Shown: positions 5,181 through 44,493 of the stretch, piece by piece
Numbering within the stretch: position 1 is the first letter of the stretch
How the letters are laid out: each line of letters opens with the position of its first letter
Source: an uncultured Clostridiaceae bacterium
GTDB lineage: Bacteria; Bacillota; Clostridia; TANB77; CAG-508
Reading direction: 5' to 3'
Assembly: GCA_947647275.1 (NCBI GenBank)
Contig: CANSJQ010000002.1
Coordinates: forward strand, 5,795-69,794
DNA: 64,000 bases
Notes under the pieces: model-generated
What the model was told of the DNA's origin: nothing
The model's database searches: none
Seen by the model: the letters and a program-made list of their open reading frames with translations, nothing else
Translations under genes and position numbers: made by a program

Positions 5181-5373
5181 AATTTTATTTTTCTCCTTAG
5201 TTTTATATTTGTTAATTATATTATATATTTTACCAATATCATATTTTTTAGTCAATGCTTTAATTATTTAAATTAATCTATAGTTTATATAATATTTTTA
5301 ATAAAACTATTTATGGTAAGATTTTATTTATTCTTTCACTCTTCTGTAATAAATTACAGTAATTTTAGCATAT

Positions 5374-6669
5374 TTATTGTTTATTTTTTATTCTTTCTAT
5401 TATCTTTTTACATTTATCATATATATCATTTTCTTCTATTTTTAACTTCTTGTTCTCCATTAAGATTTTTCCATTTACTATTGTTGTTTCTATATTATTT
5501 CCTTTTACATTATATACTATGTCTGATACTATGTCATTTACTGGTTTTGTTACAACTGTGTCTAAGTTTAGTATTATTAGGTCTGCTTGTTTTCCTTCTT
5601 CTATATTTCCTATTTTTTCTTCTAATCCTAATGCTTTTGCTCCATTTATTGTTGCTAGCTTTAATACTTCGTATGCTGGCATTTGTGTTGGCTCTTCAGT
5701 TATTCCTTTTTGAAGAAGTGCTGTATATTTCATACTTTCAAATAAATCTAAGTTACTTCCGCTTCCTTGTCCATCTGTTCCTATGCTTACATTTATTCCT
5801 TCTTTTATCATTTTTGATATATTTGCTATTCCACAACCTAGTTTTAAGTTACTTACTGGGCAGTGTGATACACTTACGTTTTTGTTTTGAGAAAGTTTTG
5901 CTATTTCTTCTTCATTTAATTTAACTGCATGTGCCAATGTTATTTTTGTATCCTTAAATTCTTTGTTTAATACATCTATTGGCTTTTCATTATATGCATT
6001 TTCAATATCTTCAACTTCTTTTGTATTTTCACAAAAATGCATGTGTATTGGTAATTCATTTTCTTTTGCAAATTTAATACATTTTTGCACATATTCTCTA
6101 CTTGATGTGTATAATCCATGTATTCCTACATTTAAACTTATACAATCATTATAGTTTTTATATTTCTCTACTAATTTTCTTAATTCTTCGAGTCTTTCTT
6201 CTCCTAATTTTTCATTTCCTGCATCCATTAGTGTTCTTGTTGTTTGAAGTCGTATTCCGCATTCAATAGCTGCTTTTATTATATCTTCTGTCATGAAATA
6301 CATATCATTTATTGTAGTTGTTCCTGTTTTAATCATTTCTAAAAATGATAGGTATGATGCATAATATATATCTTCATTTGTTAATTTATCTTCCATTGGC
6401 CATATCTTTTTTGTAAGCCAGTCTTGCAGACTGTATCCATCTACTGTTTCCCTAAATATGCTCATTGGAACATGTGCATGGGTATTTATTAAACCTGGCA
6501 TTACTATTTTTCCTTTTGCATCTAATACTTTATCTGCATCTATAGCTTCTATGTTGTTTGCTATTTTTGTTATTTTGCTATCTATTATTTCTATATCTAT
6601 ATTTTCTTCAATCTTTTTTCTTTTTTCACTCATTGATATAAGTGTTGCATTTTTAATGACTATTTTCAT
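5374..6669 (-). CDS. amidohydrolase-superfamily nucleoside/nucleobase deaminase (MtaD/SsnA-like)
   Basis: 431 aa; metal-binding HxH (GLINTHAHVPMS), later HMHFCE and GTDG motifs typical of the amidohydrolase_1 family. Confidence 0.65.
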   Translation of the reverse strand: MKIVIKNATLISMSEKRKKIEENIDIEIIDSKITKIANNIEAIDADKVLDAKGKIVMPGLINTHAHVPMSIFRETVDGYSLQDWLTKKIWPMEDKLTNEDIYYASYLSFLEMIKTGTTTINDMYFMTEDIIKAAIECGIRLQTTRTLMDAGNEKLGEERLEELRKLVEKYKNYNDCISLNVGIHGLYTSSREYVQKCIKFAKENELPIHMHFCENTKEVEDIENAYNEKPIDVLNKEFKDTKITLAHAVKLNEEEIAKLSQNKNVSVSHCPVSNLKLGCGIANISKMIKEGINVSIGTDGQGSGSNLDLFESMKYTALLQKGITEEPTQMPAYEVLKLATINGAKALGLEEKIGNIEEGKQADLIILNLDTVVTKPVNDIVSDIVYNVKGNNIETTIVNGKILMENKKLKIEENDIYDKCKKIIERIKNKQ

Positions 6670-14820: not shown

Positions 14821-14886
14821 GTCAGGGGACACCCCTTACCCTTTTGTCACTCCCACTTGGGATAAGGAATGTCCCCTACCCTTGTG
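14821..14886 (+). repeat. Family-C-like palindromic element in the rpoB leader (ggggacacccc...gtcccc; terminator-like ggggtgtcccc + U-run on the transcribed strand)
   Basis: Sits about 40 nt upstream of the rpoB RBS. On the minus strand it reads aaggggtgtcccctgacaaatttttttt. Confidence 0.45.
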
Positions 14887-15102
14887 AATAAGTGTTCAAA
14901 TAGTTATAGTATTCTCCTAACTTATACTTTAGTGAATTGAATTTATTATAAAAAGAAGTCCTTCTCGTAATTAATTTTATATTATAAAAACCTCCCCTTC
15001 CTGCTCATAAAAAGATTGATTTTTACATATAGAATTAATACAATTCCTCTTCTTTTCAAATTACGTAAACATTAAAATGGGCAAATAGCCCTATACTATT
15101 TT

Positions 15103-36340: not shown

Positions 36341-36389
36341 TTGTCCCATTGGGGACGTTTTTAAATGGGTAATCTGTCCCTAATGGAAC
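36341..36389 (+). repeat. Family-C element (tgtcccattggggacg...tgtccctaatggaac) at or just after the predicted era transcription start
   Basis: On the minus strand the -10 TATAAT (36397-36402) with -35 TTCTAC at 17-nt spacing lies just upstream of the element. Near-identical to 58121-58168 in the opposite absolute orientation. Confidence 0.7.
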
Positions 36390-36671
36390 ACATTATATTA
36401 TATATAAGTAGCTAAATTTGTAGAATTTAGTGTTATATTTTATTTTTTTATATTATAGCATATGCAAACAAAAAAAGGAACTAATTTTTATATGTTCCTT
36501 TAATCTTTAGCTTAGTTTTAGTATTCTCTTCTTAGTTTAATATATTGCTAATGCTATTTTTGCACTAATTTCTTCGAAGAGTGGATAATTATAGTTTATT
36601 TATAAATTAAATTATTTTCATAGAATACAAATTAAAATAAAGACGACTTTTTAGGTCGCCTTTGTTTAATT

Positions 36672-37747: not shown

Positions 37748-38233
37748 TTATATCCTTTCTATTTTTAATTCACTTAATATTTTTTCTTCTTTTGATCGCA
37801 TTTCCTTTTTATCTTCTTCCTCTATATGATCATACCCCATTAAGTGGTAGAAACCATGAACTAACATATAAGATAATTCTCTTTCAAAACTATGTCCATA
37901 CTCTTTTGCTTGCTCTTTAACTCTTTCTACTGAAATTATAATATCTCCTATAGTTTCCTTTACTATTTGCTTTTCCTTATTTTTAACAATTTTATCTATC
38001 TCATTTTTTTCAAACATTGGAAAAGAAAGTACATCTGTTTCTTTATCTATGCTTCTATATTCATTATTTAGTTTTCTTATTATAGTTGGAGAAGTTAATG
38101 TTATACTTATGTATAAATTTAAACTCTTTAAATTTTCTTTTTCAAAGCATTTGTTTAATACTTGTACTATTTTATTTTCATATTCTTCATTTTCTTGTAT
38201 GCATTCCCAATTAATTTCTACTAACTCTTGCAT
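37748..38233 (-). CDS. ybeY: rRNA maturation endoribonuclease YbeY
   Basis: Metal-binding HGFYHLMGYDH motif. Confidence 0.85.
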   Translation of the reverse strand: MQELVEINWECIQENEEYENKIVQVLNKCFEKENLKSLNLYISITLTSPTIIRKLNNEYRSIDKETDVLSFPMFEKNEIDKIVKNKEKQIVKETIGDIIISVERVKEQAKEYGHSFERELSYMLVHGFYHLMGYDHIEEEDKKEMRSKEEKILSELKIERI

Positions 38234-39426
38234 AAAATATTCCTTCCTATATAACTACCCTTTGATGCACATTTATTTTTTAACTGTTTCATAGCTCCTA
38301 AAGAAACTAATTTATTTTTGTAAAATTCTATTATCCTATAATATCTTGTTTCATTGTTGTATACTTCTTTTAAATCACTTTTTATAAATAATATTTCTTT
38401 TTCTTTCATTTTTTCTTCTTTATTTTCAATGTTCTTTATTATCTTATATTTATCCCAAAACGCCTTATATTGTTCTCTTTTCTCTGGCTTGTCCCAATAT
38501 ACTTTTGTAGAAAGTAATTTCAAATTATATTCTTCTATTAATTTTATTAATAATGTATATGCTTTTTCCCTTTTCTTTGATATTTTAGTATCAATTATTA
38601 ATGTCCTTACATCCTTTAATAGTTTTACATAGCATTGCTCTGCCACAACTAGTGGCAAGCTATGTGTGAATAGTTTTCTGCTTAATGCTATTAAAATCAT
38701 TCTCTTTTCTATTATTTCATTTTGATCTAACTTTCCAACAGTATAATTTTCATATCTACTATATTCTTCTATTATTTGTTTATAATTTTTATCTCCACTA
38801 ATCTCTAATTTTATTGGTAAAATACTTATGATATATTCTTCTAACAGTGAAAATATCTTTTCATATATTATATCTTTATTTTGAAAAGATACACTATCAG
38901 CAAGTTTTATAGAAAAATGTTTTAATAAACCTTTATATAAACTATCCATTTTTGTAACATAGAATTTTTTATATTTTTCTATTAATTTTGTTTTATTTGA
39001 TTCTAATAAAGTTTGATAATCTAATTCTAATAAGTATTTTTGTTTTCTATATTTATATTCTAAATATTCTGTATCTTTTATTTTTATTACATTATAATAT
39101 TTTGATAAAGCATCTTTTTCAAACTCTGATGCATCACCACTTTTTACTTTTTTATATATTGAATCCATTATATTTTTATCAATTGCCTCTAAATATAAAC
39201 TATATATTTCTTCATATTTTTTTTCTAAAATTTCTTTTTTATTTGTATTTTCTTCCTTTTCCATTTGTTCAAATGCTTCATAACATTTTAGTATGTTATT
39301 TCTTTTCATAGTGATAATCATACTATTTATTCCAATTTTTGTAGGAATCATCATTTTTGTTAAAGTATTTGTTAATCTTGTAAAAAATGTTTTATCTGCA
39401 TAGACTCTTAGGCTTCTTTCTTCCAT
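38221..39426 (-). CDS. Lys/Glu-rich helical hypothetical protein (401 aa)
   Basis: No Walker motifs, so it is not PhoH, which occupies this position in the B. subtilis yqfCD-phoH-ybeY cluster. Confidence 0.4.
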   Translation of the reverse strand: MEERSLRVYADKTFFTRLTNTLTKMMIPTKIGINSMIITMKRNNILKCYEAFEQMEKEENTNKKEILEKKYEEIYSLYLEAIDKNIMDSIYKKVKSGDASEFEKDALSKYYNVIKIKDTEYLEYKYRKQKYLLELDYQTLLESNKTKLIEKYKKFYVTKMDSLYKGLLKHFSIKLADSVSFQNKDIIYEKIFSLLEEYIISILPIKLEISGDKNYKQIIEEYSRYENYTVGKLDQNEIIEKRMILIALSRKLFTHSLPLVVAEQCYVKLLKDVRTLIIDTKISKKREKAYTLLIKLIEEYNLKLLSTKVYWDKPEKREQYKAFWDKYKIIKNIENKEEKMKEKEILFIKSDLKEVYNNETRYYRIIEFYKNKLVSLGAMKQLKNKCASKGSYIGRNILCKS

Positions 39427-39439
39427 AATATCAGTCCTT

Positions 39440-40624
39440 TCAAAATACTATTTTTTCTTTTGTCCCAATTTCTTCTAATACTTCATATGTTACTTCTACT
39501 TCTACAAACTCTTCTTGCTCATTATAGTTTATATATGTATTTACAACATCATTTTTATTTGGTATTTGTTTTTCTAAAACTTCTTGGGCTTTTTTAGCTC
39601 CTATTTCTTTTGCCTCTTCTATACTATATTCTAAGTTTTCCTCACTATATTCGCAATTTGTTTTCTTTAATACTTCAATAGGCAAATAGAAATCAGAGAA
39701 TAGTTTTATTTTTTTATTTTCTTCTATTGTATCATACTTTTTAAATTTTGAAAGAGTTTTATAAAAATTTATTTGAAAATTATTTATCTTTACGGAATAT
39801 CTATTTTCTTTATTTCCTGTTTGCTTATTTTTTACTTGTTTTAATTCTATTTTTTCTTTTTGACTATACCATACTTTTGCCTTTACATCGCCATTTGCAT
39901 GCACATATCTTATTCCTGTATATTTACCTTCAAGCCATCCCCCAACTAATATAGTACCTTCTTTTATTGTATCACCTTCTTTTACTAGGGGAGTACCATT
40001 TAAGGCATTCACTTTTACAATAATTCCTGGTTTAGTTGCAACTATATTACAATATTCTTCTTCATTTATAATATCTGGCTTTTTATCTGCTTCTACTATT
40101 TTAACAATAGCATTTGTACCTTTTAGTTCTATTCCAATCCATGCTAAATCATTTCTTTCTAAACGCATTTTACTTATAATTTGTTTTGTATTAATTTTTC
40201 CTTTCAATTTTCCAACTTTCAAACCTTCTTGCTCTAAACTTTTAACTATCTCCTCTTTTGAAATATTTACATTTCCAGTAACATCTATATTCCAAACAAA
40301 GTTTGATAAAGAAATAATACTTACAGTAAGAACAAAAAGAAAAATAAAGAAGATTTTTCTTTTTTTATACTTATTAAAGATAAAAGGAAGTCCCTTTTTG
40401 TTCTTTATTTTTATTTTACATTTAGAGTTTTTAGCTATTTTTCTTACTTTTCTAAAATTGTTAATTCCTATATTACAATATACTAATGTAGATTTTGTTC
40501 TTTTAATATTCCATAAAAATATATTTTTAGCTATACATGTATTTATAAATTTCTCAACAAAATAACCCTCTATTTCAATATTTAAATACCCTAATATATA
40601 GTTTAAAAATATTTTTACGTACAA
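39440..40624 (-). CDS. yqfD: sporulation protein YqfD
   Basis: 394 aa with TM segment and YqfD-like C-terminal domain; TTG start with AGGAGGAG RBS; follows the yqfC-like gene. Confidence 0.7.
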   Translation of the reverse strand: MYVKIFLNYILGYLNIEIEGYFVEKFINTCIAKNIFLWNIKRTKSTLVYCNIGINNFRKVRKIAKNSKCKIKIKNKKGLPFIFNKYKKRKIFFIFLFVLTVSIISLSNFVWNIDVTGNVNISKEEIVKSLEQEGLKVGKLKGKINTKQIISKMRLERNDLAWIGIELKGTNAIVKIVEADKKPDIINEEEYCNIVATKPGIIVKVNALNGTPLVKEGDTIKEGTILVGGWLEGKYTGIRYVHANGDVKAKVWYSQKEKIELKQVKNKQTGNKENRYSVKINNFQINFYKTLSKFKKYDTIEENKKIKLFSDFYLPIEVLKKTNCEYSEENLEYSIEEAKEIGAKKAQEVLEKQIPNKNDVVNTYINYNEQEEFVEVEVTYEVLEEIGTKEKIVF

Positions 40625-40663
40625 ACTTATCTCCTCCTATTAAATTTTTCTATCAAAATTCAA

Positions 40664-40708
40664 AAGGGACGGCCTTTTTTTGCAAAAATTTGCCAAGAGG
40701 GACGCCCT
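40664..40708 (+). repeat. Family-C2 palindromic element gggacggcc-ttttttt-gcaaaaatttgccaa-gagggacgccc
   Basis: Inverted copy at 41153-41213; contains the perfect palindrome tttttgcaaaaa. Confidence 0.65.
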
Positions 40709-40818
40709 CATAAAATCAAGTTGGCTGTAAATATTTTTTGAATAATTTAAGTGTTTTTCAAAAAAATAATTTAATATTGGTTATATTTTTTACCAAAAAG
40801 TGCCTACCTTTTGGTAGA

Positions 40819-41109
40819 TTATTCCTCGATAATTTCAAAATCTATTGTTTCTATTTTTCCTGTAATCATTAGATCATCAGATGTCATTTCATTTAATTTT
40901 AAGTTGAAACCATTTATATTTATAATTCCTGAGTATGTACTTATTCGTATAAAAAATTCTTGATATTCTAAAATACCTTTATAGTTTTCTACTAACATTT
41001 CGTTAAAGCTTACTATTGTTATTTTAGGTTCTGTTGATGATAATTCTTTTGGAATTTCTAGTAATCTCTCAAATTTATTTTGGTATTTCTGCTTTTTATT
41101 TCTTTTCAT
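40819..41109 (-). CDS. yqfC: YqfC/YabP-family sporulation protein
   Basis: ...ITIVSFNEMLVENYKGILEYQEFFIRISTYSGIININGFNLKLNEMTSDDLMITGKIETIDF matches the YabP/YqfC fold. The ORF-track N-terminal extension (to 41229) is the translated repeat; the start at 41109 has a GAAGGGA RBS, with 41145 as an alternative. Confidence 0.65.
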   Translation of the reverse strand: MKRNKKQKYQNKFERLLEIPKELSSTEPKITIVSFNEMLVENYKGILEYQEFFIRISTYSGIININGFNLKLNEMTSDDLMITGKIETIDFEIIEE

Positions 41110-41152
41110 ATATAATATTTTCCCTTCTATTAATAATATCTTCATATTATTA

Positions 41153-41213
41153 AAAGGGTGTCCCTTTTGGCAGATTTTTGCTAAAAAAGGCCGTCCCTTT
41201 TGGCAGACTTTGA
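41153..41213 (-). repeat. Family-C2 element (inverted copy) between pdaA-like stop and yqfC start
   Basis: Its revcomp aligns with 40664-40708. Confidence 0.65.
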
Positions 41214-41218
41214 TCAAG

Positions 41219-42025
41219 TTATCTTGCAAAATTATCTAATGTGTGAAACTCGTATCCCATATTTTTTATTTCTTTTATGCAATAATCTAATACATTGGTA
41301 TTATCTTTTGAGTTTCCATGTAGTAGTATTACTGCTCCATTATGTATGTTATCTAATATTTTCTTTTTCGCATATTCTTCTCTTCCTTGTTTATTTTCAT
41401 CCCAATCATCATATGCAAATGACCACATTACTGTTGTATATCCTAGTGTATTACAATAATTTACGCTTGATTCACTATATTCTCCTTTTGGTGGTCTTAT
41501 GTATTTCATTTCATAACCAAATTTATTATAAATAGCTGTATGTAAATTCATAACTTCGTCTTTTATTTGTTCACTATTTAAACTTGGCATACTTTTATGG
41601 TTTACTGTATGATTTCCTATTGTATGACCGTCATTAATCATTTTTTGCACTAAATCAGGATTTGTATTCACATAATGAGCTGTTATAAAAAAACATGCTT
41701 TAACTTCATTTTGTTTTAGTGCTTCTAATATTTTTTCAGTATAGCCTGCTTCATATCCCTCATCAAATGTTAAATATACTTTTTTTAGTTCTTTATTTCC
41801 TATTGCTATTCCTTTGGCTTCATCTATTATTTTTTTATTTAAATAACCTAAATCTGGCTGTTCATGATTATTGTTTCTTTTTATTCCCCATTCTATTTTT
41901 TTATTACTTAAATTAGCTGTATTTGCACTTGTTTGTACTATACTTTCATTATTTTTTAGTCCCGTTATGATAATTCCAATTACAAATATAATAACTACTA
42001 TAAATATTTTCTTTGTTTTTTCCAC
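41219..42025 (-). CDS. polysaccharide deacetylase (NodB family; PdaA/PdaB-like sporulation deacetylase)
   Basis: TFDEGY, HTIGNHTVNH motifs; GTG start with AGGAGGT RBS; N-terminal signal anchor. Confidence 0.75.
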   Translation of the reverse strand: MEKTKKIFIVVIIFVIGIIITGLKNNESIVQTSANTANLSNKKIEWGIKRNNNHEQPDLGYLNKKIIDEAKGIAIGNKELKKVYLTFDEGYEAGYTEKILEALKQNEVKACFFITAHYVNTNPDLVQKMINDGHTIGNHTVNHKSMPSLNSEQIKDEVMNLHTAIYNKFGYEMKYIRPPKGEYSESSVNYCNTLGYTTVMWSFAYDDWDENKQGREEYAKKKILDNIHNGAVILLHGNSKDNTNVLDYCIKEIKNMGYEFHTLDNFAR

Positions 42026-42352: not shown

Positions 42353-42431
42353 TGGAATTAATTGGAAATAATGCCTTATGTTATTGTTTTGCTTGGCATT
42401 TATTTTTTCAATTCACACGGAGGATAAAGAT

Positions 42432-43193
42432 ATGTTAAGTTTTGTATTATGTGATGATAATCAATCTATTTTGGATAGGTTATCTAAAATTTTGGATTCT
42501 ATTTTTTTAGAAAATAATATTTACGCAGAAATAGTATTTACTGCTAATAAACCAGAAGAGCTATTAAATTATATTAAGTCAAATAATGTAGATGTTTTAT
42601 TTTTAGATATTGATTTAAAATCAAATATTTCTGGAATTGACTTAGCTACTAAAATAAGAGAATTTAATAAAGATGTTTATATAATTTTTACAAGTGCTCA
42701 TTTAGAATATATCTTAATTGCCTATAAATGTAAAACTTTTGATTTTATTCCCAAACCCATTTCAAAAGAACGTGTGGAAGAAACAATACTTAGACTTATG
42801 GATGACATAAATAGTGATGGTAATACTACATCTTTTATACGAATTGACAGTAAAAACACAATAATTAATCAAGATAGTATTAACTTTATCAAAAAGGATG
42901 GTATGAAATTAGTCTTTTACACAGACACAAGAATCTATGAAGCTTATAATTCTTTTAATAAAATTTCTAATGAATTACCAAAAAACTTTGTCAGATGTCA
43001 TAAATCATACATTGCTAATGTTAATAAAATTAGTAATATAAACTCCAATAACAATTTAATTATTTTTAATACAAAGAATAATTATAATGAAATTAAATGT
43101 AATATTGGACCAAAATATAAAAATAATTTAATGGAGGTTTTAAAAAATGGAAATTTTTCAGACAATTTGGGCAGATTTAACAACGGAGAATGA
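42432..43193 (+). CDS. LytTR-family response regulator (AgrA-like)
   Basis: Receiver domain (LCDDN..., DVLFLDIDL) plus C-terminal LytTR DNA-binding domain. ATG at 42432 with a GGAGGA RBS; the ORF-track start at 42378 is less likely. Confidence 0.8.
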   Translation: MLSFVLCDDNQSILDRLSKILDSIFLENNIYAEIVFTANKPEELLNYIKSNNVDVLFLDIDLKSNISGIDLATKIREFNKDVYIIFTSAHLEYILIAYKCKTFDFIPKPISKERVEETILRLMDDINSDGNTTSFIRIDSKNTIINQDSINFIKKDGMKLVFYTDTRIYEAYNSFNKISNELPKNFVRCHKSYIANVNKISNINSNNNLIIFNTKNNYNEIKCNIGPKYKNNLMEVLKNGNFSDNLGRFNNGE

Positions 43194-44493
43194 GGTGTTA
43201 ACTACACTCATAGGAATTCCTTTTGTATTTTTGGAAGGTTTTATCTCTATGCTTTTATTTACGACATTACTAAATGTTAAAGCAAATAAAAATCAAAAAA
43301 TATTATATGTTGTTATTGCTTCTATATTTAGTATTTTTAGTAGCATGATACTTTCTAATCCATTTAATACTTTTGCTAATATGGTTGTAGTATTTTTATC
43401 AATACTTCTAATCTTTAAAACTAATATTTTAAAAGCATTTATATGTTTATTTTTTCCAACTATTATTGCTGCTCTTGTTGAAACAGTTATAGGTAATTTA
43501 TATCCTTTAATATTTGGAATTAATTACTGTTCTGCTTTTAATATTCCTTTTCATAGAATTTTTGCAACAAGCACAGTATATTTTATTATGTTTTTGATAT
43601 ATTTATTAGTAAAATACTTAAAGTTGAATATATCTAAACTTCAAATTTTAGATAGAAAAAGGAAAATATTATTAATTTTAAATATTATATTTGGAATCAT
43701 ACTAATATGTATGCAATTATATATAATTACTTTTTATGTTTCTAATTTGCCATTTTTTATCGCAATATTAAGCATTATTAGTCTATTTTTATATTTTTCT
43801 ATAAGCTTATATACAACGTTTACTTCTTCAAAATTAGAAACTACTTATATTAGCTTAGAAGAAGCTCAGTTATATAATAAAACTTTAGAAATACTACAAG
43901 ATAATACAAGAGCATTTAGACACGACTTTACTAATATATTGTTAGGCATGACTGGATATATGGATAATAATGACATGGAAGGTTTAAAGAAATATCATAG
44001 TCAATTACTTGATGATATTAAACAAGTTAATAACTTAACAACTCTTAGCCCTACATTAGTTAATAATCCAGCAATATATAATATACTTGCTTCAAAATAT
44101 CATAAAGCTGATAATTTAGGTATTAAAATTAATTTAGAAGTATTTTTAGATTTAAATGATTTACATATGAAAATTTATGAATTTACTAGAATATTAGGTA
44201 TACTTATGGATAATGCTATTGAAGCAACCTCTGAGTGTGAAGATAAAATAATTAATGTATCTATTAGAAAAAATAACAGAAAACATATGCAATTATTGCA
44301 AATAGAAAATACATATAAGGATAAAGAAATTGATACTGAAAAGATCTACGAAAAAGGTTATTCTACAAAGAAAGGAAATACTGGACTTGGATTATGGGAG
44401 GTAAGGCAAATTTTAAAGAAAAATAACAATTTAAATTTGTATACTTCTAAAGATGAAACATATTTTTCTCAACAATTAGAAATATATTATTAA
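43147..44493 (+). CDS. AgrC-like sensor histidine kinase (6-7 TM + HATPase_c, HPK10 type)
   Basis: Polytopic N-terminus, FRHDFTNIL H-box, G-box GLGLW; GGAGG RBS. Confidence 0.75.
   Translation: MEIFQTIWADLTTENEVLTTLIGIPFVFLEGFISMLLFTTLLNVKANKNQKILYVVIASIFSIFSSMILSNPFNTFANMVVVFLSILLIFKTNILKAFICLFFPTIIAALVETVIGNLYPLIFGINYCSAFNIPFHRIFATSTVYFIMFLIYLLVKYLKLNISKLQILDRKRKILLILNIIFGIILICMQLYIITFYVSNLPFFIAILSIISLFLYFSISLYTTFTSSKLETTYISLEEAQLYNKTLEILQDNTRAFRHDFTNILLGMTGYMDNNDMEGLKKYHSQLLDDIKQVNNLTTLSPTLVNNPAIYNILASKYHKADNLGIKINLEVFLDLNDLHMKIYEFTRILGILMDNAIEATSECEDKIINVSIRKNNRKHMQLLQIENTYKDKEIDTEKIYEKGYSTKKGNTGLGLWEVRQILKKNNNLNLYTSKDETYFSQQLEIYY

Follow-up and report, generated by a model that had tools for sequence, protein, structure and literature searches.

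Genes that encode proteins resembling the repetitive extragenic palindrome (REP)-associated tyrosine transposases (RAYTs) and that are bordered by terminal inverted repeats (TIRs) have been named TIRYTs, residing in so-called TIRtrons (Di Nocera, De Gregorio & Rocco 2013, PMC3733652). Many of the TIRs share a GGGGWSAS motif, and some TIR families are moderately repeated and occur as dimers or clusters (PMC3733652). Most TIRYTs belong to subclass 2.1 of the TnpA-Y1 transposases, which is typified by an NHVH motif, a Y motif of the form Y[IV]..NP, a length of about 238 aa and a C-terminal domain resembling a helix-turn-helix (HTH), and REP-like sequences were not found near subclass 2.1 genes (Quentin et al. 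2018, PMC6006769). The corresponding Group 1 was recorded in Clostridia, with flanking 16-mers that are modestly repeated (Bertels et al. 2017, PMC5581495), while IS608 TnpA and E. coli TnpA-REP serve as models for the recognition of single-stranded repeats (literature cited in PMC6006769). Here we describe two short elements that lie in inverted orientation on either side of the sporulation gene yqfC in a 64,000-nt stretch (referred to as the window) of contig CANSJQ010000002.1 from an uncultured Clostridiaceae bacterium. These elements very probably belong to a dispersed repeat of ~55 nt, whose master copies bound a RAYT-like Y1 (HUH) transposase gene as its inverted termini (i.e., a TIRYT in a TIRtron).

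In agreement with the initial annotation of the window, which had noted inverted palindromic elements bracketing yqfC, a repeat search returned a single inverted pair at this gene (40661-40713 / 41150-41202), with arms of 53 nt that are 89% complementary and 436 nt between them. Each arm (copy A and copy B; Table 1) comprises two tandem units, 33 nt apart, each of which can fold as a small hairpin AAAAGGG-ACNN-CCCTTTT. The 16-mer GCCAAAAGGGACGGCC, when allowed up to 3 mismatches, has four matches in the 64-kb window, two per arm, vs. 0.05 expected, and none of 100 shuffles reached this number. A profile built from the relatives described below recovered just two modules in the window at E < 0.01, i.e., 40659-40711 on the plus strand (53 bits) and 41205-41150 on the minus strand (57 bits). 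The perfect palindrome that the initial annotation had attributed to the element as such (TTTTTGCAAAAA, 40677-40688) is indeed present in copy A but restricted to it, copy B having TTTTTTAGCAAAAA.

A scan of GTDB (one genome per species) for two GGGACRNCC units 8-30 nt apart yielded at least 115 stretches. Among the matches listed, at least 50 distinct modules came from low-G+C sources (0.25-0.37), namely the two window copies and 48 others, the latter from metagenome-assembled genomes (MAGs) labeled uncultured Clostridia, Clostridiaceae or Clostridium, plus one record titled Lachnospiraceae; judged by their sequences, these low-G+C modules are clearly the same element as the window copies. 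Several MAGs contribute more than one locus (at least 10 in JAFTQC01, at least 5 in CAKPFO01, at least 4 in JAAWDR01 and at least 3 in CAMXOP01). According to a crude open reading frame (ORF) call on the low-G+C loci, all modules are intergenic. Each module consists of an outer (P1) and an inner (P2) hairpin in tandem, built around a conserved GGGAC(R)N core, and its outer P1 end almost always lies no more than about 50 nt from a gene boundary. The P1 palindrome is backed by covariation, in that 81.6% of the cells are paired and 6 pairs have changed on both sides (a score reached by 0/500 shuffles), and its outer stem occurs in variants such as GTGCC/GGCAC, GTGTC/GACAC, GAGTC/GACTC and ACCA/TGGT. 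Outside the search pattern (38 columns), identity was 69.5% within genomes vs. 55.2% between genomes, a difference that none of 2,000 permutations attained. Such genome-specific sub-variants are the expected product of within-genome amplification or homogenization, either of which would produce this pattern.

When a profile hidden Markov model of the module was run over 454 kb of low-G+C loci plus the window, a strict polarity emerged, with 20 convergent, 0 divergent and 1 direct doublets next to 6 self-palindromic and 19 solo modules, and with spacers ranging from 4 to 829 nt. Most modules had a full-length inverted partner in their vicinity. In a convergent doublet the plus module precedes the minus module, so that the P2 ends face inward to each other and the P1 ends outward. 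Some sites recur, as a doublet occupies the mcsB-clpC intergenic region in two different MAGs (L021 6104-6225 and L045 5670-5791; L numbers denote individual loci) and a module is located at the clpC 3′ end in a third (L078 6639-6696), which suggests that mcsB-clpC sites are used recurrently by modules. Two other convergent doublets bracket small genes, i.e., a 57-aa alpha/beta-type small acid-soluble spore protein (SASP; PF00269) in L107 (6101-6645) and an ORF of 41-48 aa without a family in L112 (5141-5462); L107, which had been considered as an ortholog of the yqfC locus, was discarded as such because it brackets the SASP gene instead. A sigma-54 promoter suspected in the L112 linker (TGGCAC-N4-TTGC) was likewise dismissed, as this sequence simply corresponds to the 3′ half of the stem of P1 and is conserved neither in the window nor in the other subfamilies.

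At the upper end of the spacer range are the doublets L087 (829 nt) and L096 (813 nt), and each of these two surrounds a single gene (249-252 aa) that matches PF01797 (Y1_Tnp; E-values of 1e-10 and 2e-9, respectively). The top NCBIfam model for the enclosed gene is NF047646 (REP-associated tyrosine transposase) at 69-77 bits, with IS200 scoring 16-20 bits, and its sole match in the PDB is E. coli TnpA-REP (4ER8). Proteins of this type (245-255 aa) display an NHVHIL or NHAHIL HuH motif and a YIHNNPVKA tyrosine motif, and their C-terminal tail of about 100 aa gives sub-threshold HTH_60 (16-22 bits, cutoff 24) and HTH_23 signals. The repeat is also carried by L058, an ortholog of the pdaA-yqfC-yqfD locus, which comes from the same MAG (CAMXOP01) as L087. 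A homolog with 90% identity (P0002) occurs in 11 contigs, always between queA and tgt, and these include contigs from the metagenome project behind the near-identical scaffold of the window. Convergent modules flank P0002 (L119-L128) and hold in their P1 the exact 20-mer CAAAAGGGACGGCCTTTTTT of the window, and one P0002 contig of 919 nt stops at both ends just inside the outer P1 hairpin. As single-stranded DNA, the local hairpins of the window copies are weak (about -10 kcal/mol, z of -1.5 to -2) and the copies beside the transposase gene give better folds (z of -3.4 to -3.8), which, as far as predicted folds can tell, suggests that the window copies are decaying.

Upstream of the transposase start codon, a tandem ATAGGGGCnAATT motif was noticed in the stretch of 5′ untranslated region that follows the inner hairpin (L119 2962-3000; L087 about 5244-5317), and this motif may be an operator. 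Outside the Clostridia, the same scan showed RAYT-like genes adjoining GGGAC-type tandem units in Planctomycetes, Desulfatiglandales, Deltaproteobacteria and Treponema, in agreement with the GGGGWSAS motif of TIRYT TIRs (PMC3733652, PMC6006769). Such high-G+C matches had been thought to be chance tandem repeats, a view that was abandoned because several adjoin RAYT-like genes, so that at least some represent related systems. More specifically, one or two G-rich units with a GGGGAC core (three in L046) precede RAYT-like genes in Desulfatiglandales, Deltaproteobacteria and Planctomycetales (L036 300-410 and 1830-1905; L047 480-600 and about 1130-1160; L046 700-760), the form in L036 and L047 being GGGGGACG(T/A)CCTTAA. 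A GGGAC-cored unit beside the gene looks general for this group of RAYT-like transposases.

Table 1. Repeat modules and genes of the pdaA-yqfC-yqfD region (window coordinates).
Feature	Position	Strand	Evidence
pdaA-like polysaccharide deacetylase gene	42025..41219	-	PF01522
Copy B, two-hairpin module, sense, in the spacer from the pdaA-like stop (41219) to the yqfC start (41109)	41150..41205	-	nhmmer 57.4 bits, E 2.8e-16
Copy B P1, GCCAAAAGGGACGGCCTTTTTTAGC	41204-41180	-	
Copy B P2, AAAAGGGACACCCTTTT	41168-41152	-	
yqfC (96 aa, YabP family), bracketed gene, outside the repeat	40819..41109	-	PF07873 YabP; gene calls on near-identical contigs
Decayed single unit TCTACCAAAAGGTAGGCACTTTTTGGTAAAAAAT, directly after the yqfC stop	40785..40818	-	65-77% identity to copy B units
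Copy A, module as in copy B but antisense relative to the operon, in the spacer from yqfC to the yqfD ribosome-binding site (RBS)	40659..40711	+	nhmmer 53.2 bits
Copy A P1, CAAAAGGGACGGCCTTTTTTTG	about 40661-40682	+	
Copy A linker palindrome, TTTTTGCAAAAA	40677-40688	+	
Copy A P2, GAGGGACGCCCTC	40697-40709	+	
yqfD	40624..39440	-	PF06898

The window has a G+C content of 28%, and the genes around the repeats are all encoded on the minus strand. A 136-aa ORF (40819-41229) runs through copy B, but the gene callers of near-identical contigs give yqfC 96 aa (i.e., the equivalent of 40819-41109), and the N-terminal extension of the longer ORF is therefore spurious, as the initial annotation had already supposed. 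Further downstream, AAAAGGAAGTCCCTTTTT at 40380-40400 within yqfD looks like a repeat unit but codes for the KGLPF motif of YqfD, and is taken to be a chance or coding resemblance.

When the low-G+C modules were oriented relative to co-directional neighbor genes, 17 were sense and 18 antisense, and this strand neutrality argues against an RNA-level cis-regulator or terminator. That the repeats are intrinsic terminators or attenuators separating pdaA, yqfC and yqfD, as the initial annotation had entertained together with antiterminators, is accordingly very unlikely. It is true that three terminator-like sites were counted (vs. 0.1 expected), all within repeat units, and that in L107 a unit and an inverted unit form a good terminator-like hairpin after the SASP gene. 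However, two of the three sites are antisense to the operon, and the one in sense orientation coincides with the decayed unit, whose stem is weak (6 pairs, including 3 G-C); the T-run is paired to the A-run inside the stem, leaving no free U-tract behind it; and the local folds are as weak as stated above.

The paired hairpins also recall the guanidine-II (mini-ykkC) riboswitch, in which two ACGR-loop hairpins kiss on guanidinium to control translation downstream. Like RF01068, the module has two short tandem hairpins with GG-ACG(N)-CC caps and a linker of suitable length (about 16 nt), and copy A (+, 40661-40709) even aligns with that model end to end in the E-value mode of Rfam. Nevertheless, score, loop consensus, orientation, gene context and copy number all fail in the module family. 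With 1.1 kb searched, the alignment scored 20.7 bits (E = 0.13), the gathering score being 32, and at the gathering threshold Rfam returned only two tRNAs for the whole window and nothing at the yqfC locus. The strand that matches runs antisense to every gene nearby, no ORF follows on it, and the sense copy B was not matched. The window loops read ACGG (P1) and ACG(C) (P2) in copy A and ACGG (P1) and ACAC (P2) in copy B. The P2 loops of 43 family members are ACAC, ACAG, ACAA, ACGC or ACGT and never ACGR, which P1 shows in 9 of the 43. Finally, the family is multi-copy, strand-neutral and arranged in inverted doublets, and Gdx/SugE or another guanidine gene was found in none of 40 neighbors. 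The chance that the module is such a riboswitch is practically negligible, and the resemblance is coincidental.

The history of the yqfC locus was traced in two orthologous pdaA-yqfC-yqfD loci (L058 and L089; protein identities of 70-86%). Copy A is found at the same site, just upstream of the yqfD RBS, and in the same antisense orientation in the window, L058 and L089 (in a degenerate form in the latter), whereas L058 lacks copy B, which in the window and L089 follows the pdaA stop directly. In L058, copy A and a minus-strand module that directly follows the stop of yqfC make up a tight doublet, 5720-5774 (+) / 5905-5854 (-). The decayed unit of the window (40785-40818) aligns to the intact L058 unit ACCAAAAGGGACGACC. 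As far as this alignment goes, the decayed unit is the remnant of the minus-strand doublet partner of copy A. The yqfC-yqfD spacer would then house an old doublet (copy A plus the decayed unit), while copy B is one more copy that lies in the pdaA-yqfC spacer, and the bracketing is therefore not a conserved composite. The composite insertion proposed in the initial annotation came nearest among its options, in the sense that the elements are modules of a mobile-element family; yqfC as its cargo does not hold, given that the L058 doublet sits wholly between yqfC and yqfD without copy B.

Because the arms are inverted, a duplex of ~53 bp between copy B and copy A could form around yqfC in the RNA and, as a co-opted element, act as an RNase III site or stabilizing stem that sets the yqfC:yqfD ratio. 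Both the minimum free energy and centroid folds of the 626-nt sense RNA contain this long-range duplex (-136.7 kcal/mol vs. -91.6 kcal/mol for shuffles; z = -9.2), copy A has been kept at one site in three species, and other convergent pairs also bracket small genes (i.e., the SASP gene and the 41-48-aa ORF mentioned above). Such a duplex is automatic for any inverted repeat, however, and the absence of copy B from L058 together with the decay of the near partner in the window means that the bracketing geometry is not conserved. Four near-identical strains have an identical arrangement and differ by only two SNPs (single-nucleotide polymorphisms) over 641 nt, both within repeat units, at about 41164 (P2 of copy B) and 40809 (decayed unit), corresponding to alignment columns 77 and 432; the sole SNP in copy B thus sits in a unit of the supposed stem. 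Translation of yqfC would moreover melt it. Taken together, a regulatory stem predicted from these folds seems unlikely.

Inverted repeats flanking a short segment are the geometry of invertible promoters. The 53-bp repeats could in that case flip the 436-bp yqfC segment and make sporulation phase-variable, but this is extremely unlikely, as all four independent assemblies show the same orientation, the arms are matched only for 89%, and no adjacent recombinase gene was noticed. Doublets with spacers of 4-80 nt, which are impossible as switches, also belong to this repeat family.

A link with sporulation control was weighed by comparing 40 ORFs flanking modules, from 28 loci, against Pfam. Sporulation families account for 4 of these 40 neighbors (SpoIIIAB twice, SpoIIIAE and SpoIVB), and one doublet also brackets the SASP gene. 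Most of the neighbors are housekeeping genes, encoding pyruvate kinase, glycogen phosphorylase and debranching enzyme; LepA, McsB and ClpC (three loci), topoisomerase, DNA polymerase III delta, GroEL and DnaB; and a penicillin-binding protein, Mur ligases, TilS, TsaD, FtsW/RodA and FtsX. The initial annotation had speculated on operators for a sporulation regulator, in which a Spo0A-type or sigma-factor-linked protein would control yqfC/yqfD through these sites, and the location of the elements within a sporulation operon, together with the copies that adjoin spoIIIA genes, spoIVB and a SASP gene, speaks for such a role. With copies elsewhere flanking mostly housekeeping genes, however, no association with sporulation was seen in the relatives, and modules also flank their own transposase gene between queA and tgt. 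A Spo0A box or sigma-E/K/G/F consensus was not evident on reading the conserved core, and promoter-like matches numbered 6 vs. 8.7 expected from shuffles. An operator function in sporulation is in consequence scarcely credible, and the repeats are selfish intergenic elements rather than sporulation-specific control sites.

As to mechanism, the transposase would, by analogy with IS200/IS608 TnpA and E. coli TnpA-REP, recognize the P1/P2 hairpins on single-stranded DNA and copy or maintain them genome-wide. The window elements would then be non-autonomous copies of the repeat, presumably spread by transposition and without effect on the expression of adjoining genes, and the bracketing of yqfC would be a by-product of two neighboring short intergenic regions that each hold a repeat. 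Any TIRYT of the window organism itself would be predicted at the position that the gene takes in L119-L128 (between queA and tgt), with GGGACGGCC-type modules on its flanks.

Several observations weigh against a repeat with transposase-borne master copies. No transposase gene was found in the 64-kb window, which contains only two modules, and the NF047646 score of the enclosed proteins is just under the curated cutoff of 80 bits. The assignment to subclass 2.1 is tentative. Copy A has moreover been kept at one site in three species in which YqfD is 75-79% identical over the aligned parts, a persistence that could reflect selection rather than hitch-hiking. Finally, the doublet spacers have no homology to the transposase interior, and the doublets are for that reason not simple internal-deletion miniature inverted-repeat transposable elements (MITEs). 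The idea that these spacers are remnants of the interior of a transposase element was indeed rejected, as nothing beyond AT-rich noise was shared. Among the family members, neither a duplication of the target site nor a conserved target sequence on the 5′ side of P1 was seen.

A bolder proposal, which we consider unlikely, is that the convergent pairs (around yqfC, and around the SASP gene and the tiny ORF in relatives) have been co-opted, either as an RNase III or stability stem that uncouples a small sporulation gene or as a substrate for flipping yqfC; in its modest version, it would make the family the first clear REPIN-like population (i.e., inverted REP doublets) tied to a subclass 2.1 / Group 1 RAYT. 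If co-option were true, a selfish RAYT-type repeat would be modulating the expression of a sporulation gene.

Some further features of the window were noted. A second G+C-rich intergenic palindrome family, GTCCC(C)AAT(T)GGGGAC / CCCAATTGGG, is present at 36343-36400, 56196-56250, 58131-58175 and possibly 14826-14890, and is probably the family that the initial annotation had labeled C1. This family, too, has GGGGAC-type cores, but it could not be aligned to the yqfC module. The GGGAC-containing islands at 14826 and 56192, which were considered as members of the yqfC module, could not be aligned to it and appear to be a different repeat. Beside the pdaA-like gene lies an agr-like quorum-sensing set with a LytTR response regulator (42378-43193, +) and a HATPase_c_5 histidine kinase (43147-44493, +), to which a longer near-identical scaffold (L001 670-1480) adds AgrB and a 39-aa ORF. 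Between yqfD and ybeY, a lysine/glutamate-rich ORF of 401 aa (38221-39426, -) has no Pfam family on record and is 76% identical in L058.

For annotation, these data imply that the repeat yields false ORF extensions such as the 136-aa "yqfC", and that its mimicry of guanidine-II, with a full-length sub-threshold Rfam alignment, could cause low-G+C Clostridial genomes to gather false riboswitch or regulatory-site calls. A tempting but unsupported hypothesis on sporulation regulation is removed. For uncultured gut Clostridiaceae, the data document a family of REPIN-like doublets with two hairpins per module, which is tied to a RAYT-like transposase. Because subclass 2.1 / Group 1 has been reported with few or no repeats, this family offers a natural system for how "domesticated" Y1 transposases maintain repeats in Firmicutes. 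A description of the Clostridial repeat family was not found in the literature; the TIRtron/TIRYT kind itself is already known.

Compared with canonical REP sequences, bacterial interspersed mosaic elements (BIMEs) and REPINs, i.e., those of E. coli TnpA-REP and Pseudomonas, the modules are likewise short extragenic palindromes that are intergenic and form inverted doublets. The same units also flank a single-copy Y1 transposase gene in inverted orientation, as in a REPtron, and occur as genome-specific sub-variants, suggesting co-evolution with the transposase. In contrast to canonical REPs, the family lacks the GTAG/GTGG guide, in that no conserved GT[AG]G tetranucleotide was found 0-2 nt 5′ of the hairpin foot, where the positions vary (GTGCC, GTGTC, GAGTC, CTGCC, ATTC and others). 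The arms are two-hairpin structures with AT-rich stems and a 3-bp G-C cap, and copies are far fewer than those of classic REPs, which number hundreds per genome.

The closest likeness is to the TIRtrons, although some differences are apparent. A Clostridial family features in neither of the two TIRYT papers (the string 'Clostridi' does not occur in PMC3733652), and each arm is here a tandem pair of hairpins. With regard to subclass 2.1, the W motif reads YR rather than WE, WQ or FQ, and, whereas Quentin et al. found no REP-like sequences near the genes, the flanks described here are clearly a dispersed family. In common with TIRtrons, however, the system has a RAYT-like Y1 transposase of about 250 aa with NHVH/NHAH and Y..NP motifs and an extra C-terminal tail, encoded by a single-copy gene at a fixed chromosomal site with inverted repeats on both sides. 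The repeats are moderately amplified, often as dimers or clusters, and have a GGGGWSAS-like core (here GGGACAC, GGGACAG or GGGACGC). In the window, P2 of copy B (AGGGACAC) matches GGGGWSAS at 7 of 8 positions and P2 of copy A (AGGGACGC) and P1 (AGGGACGG) at 6 of 8 each, while some relatives match in full (GGGGACAC or GGGGACAG), so that the overall agreement is close but not exact. Based on protein length, the NHVH/NHAH motif, the weak C-terminal HTH signal and the TIR motif, the system is tentatively assigned to RAYT subclass 2.1 / Group 1.

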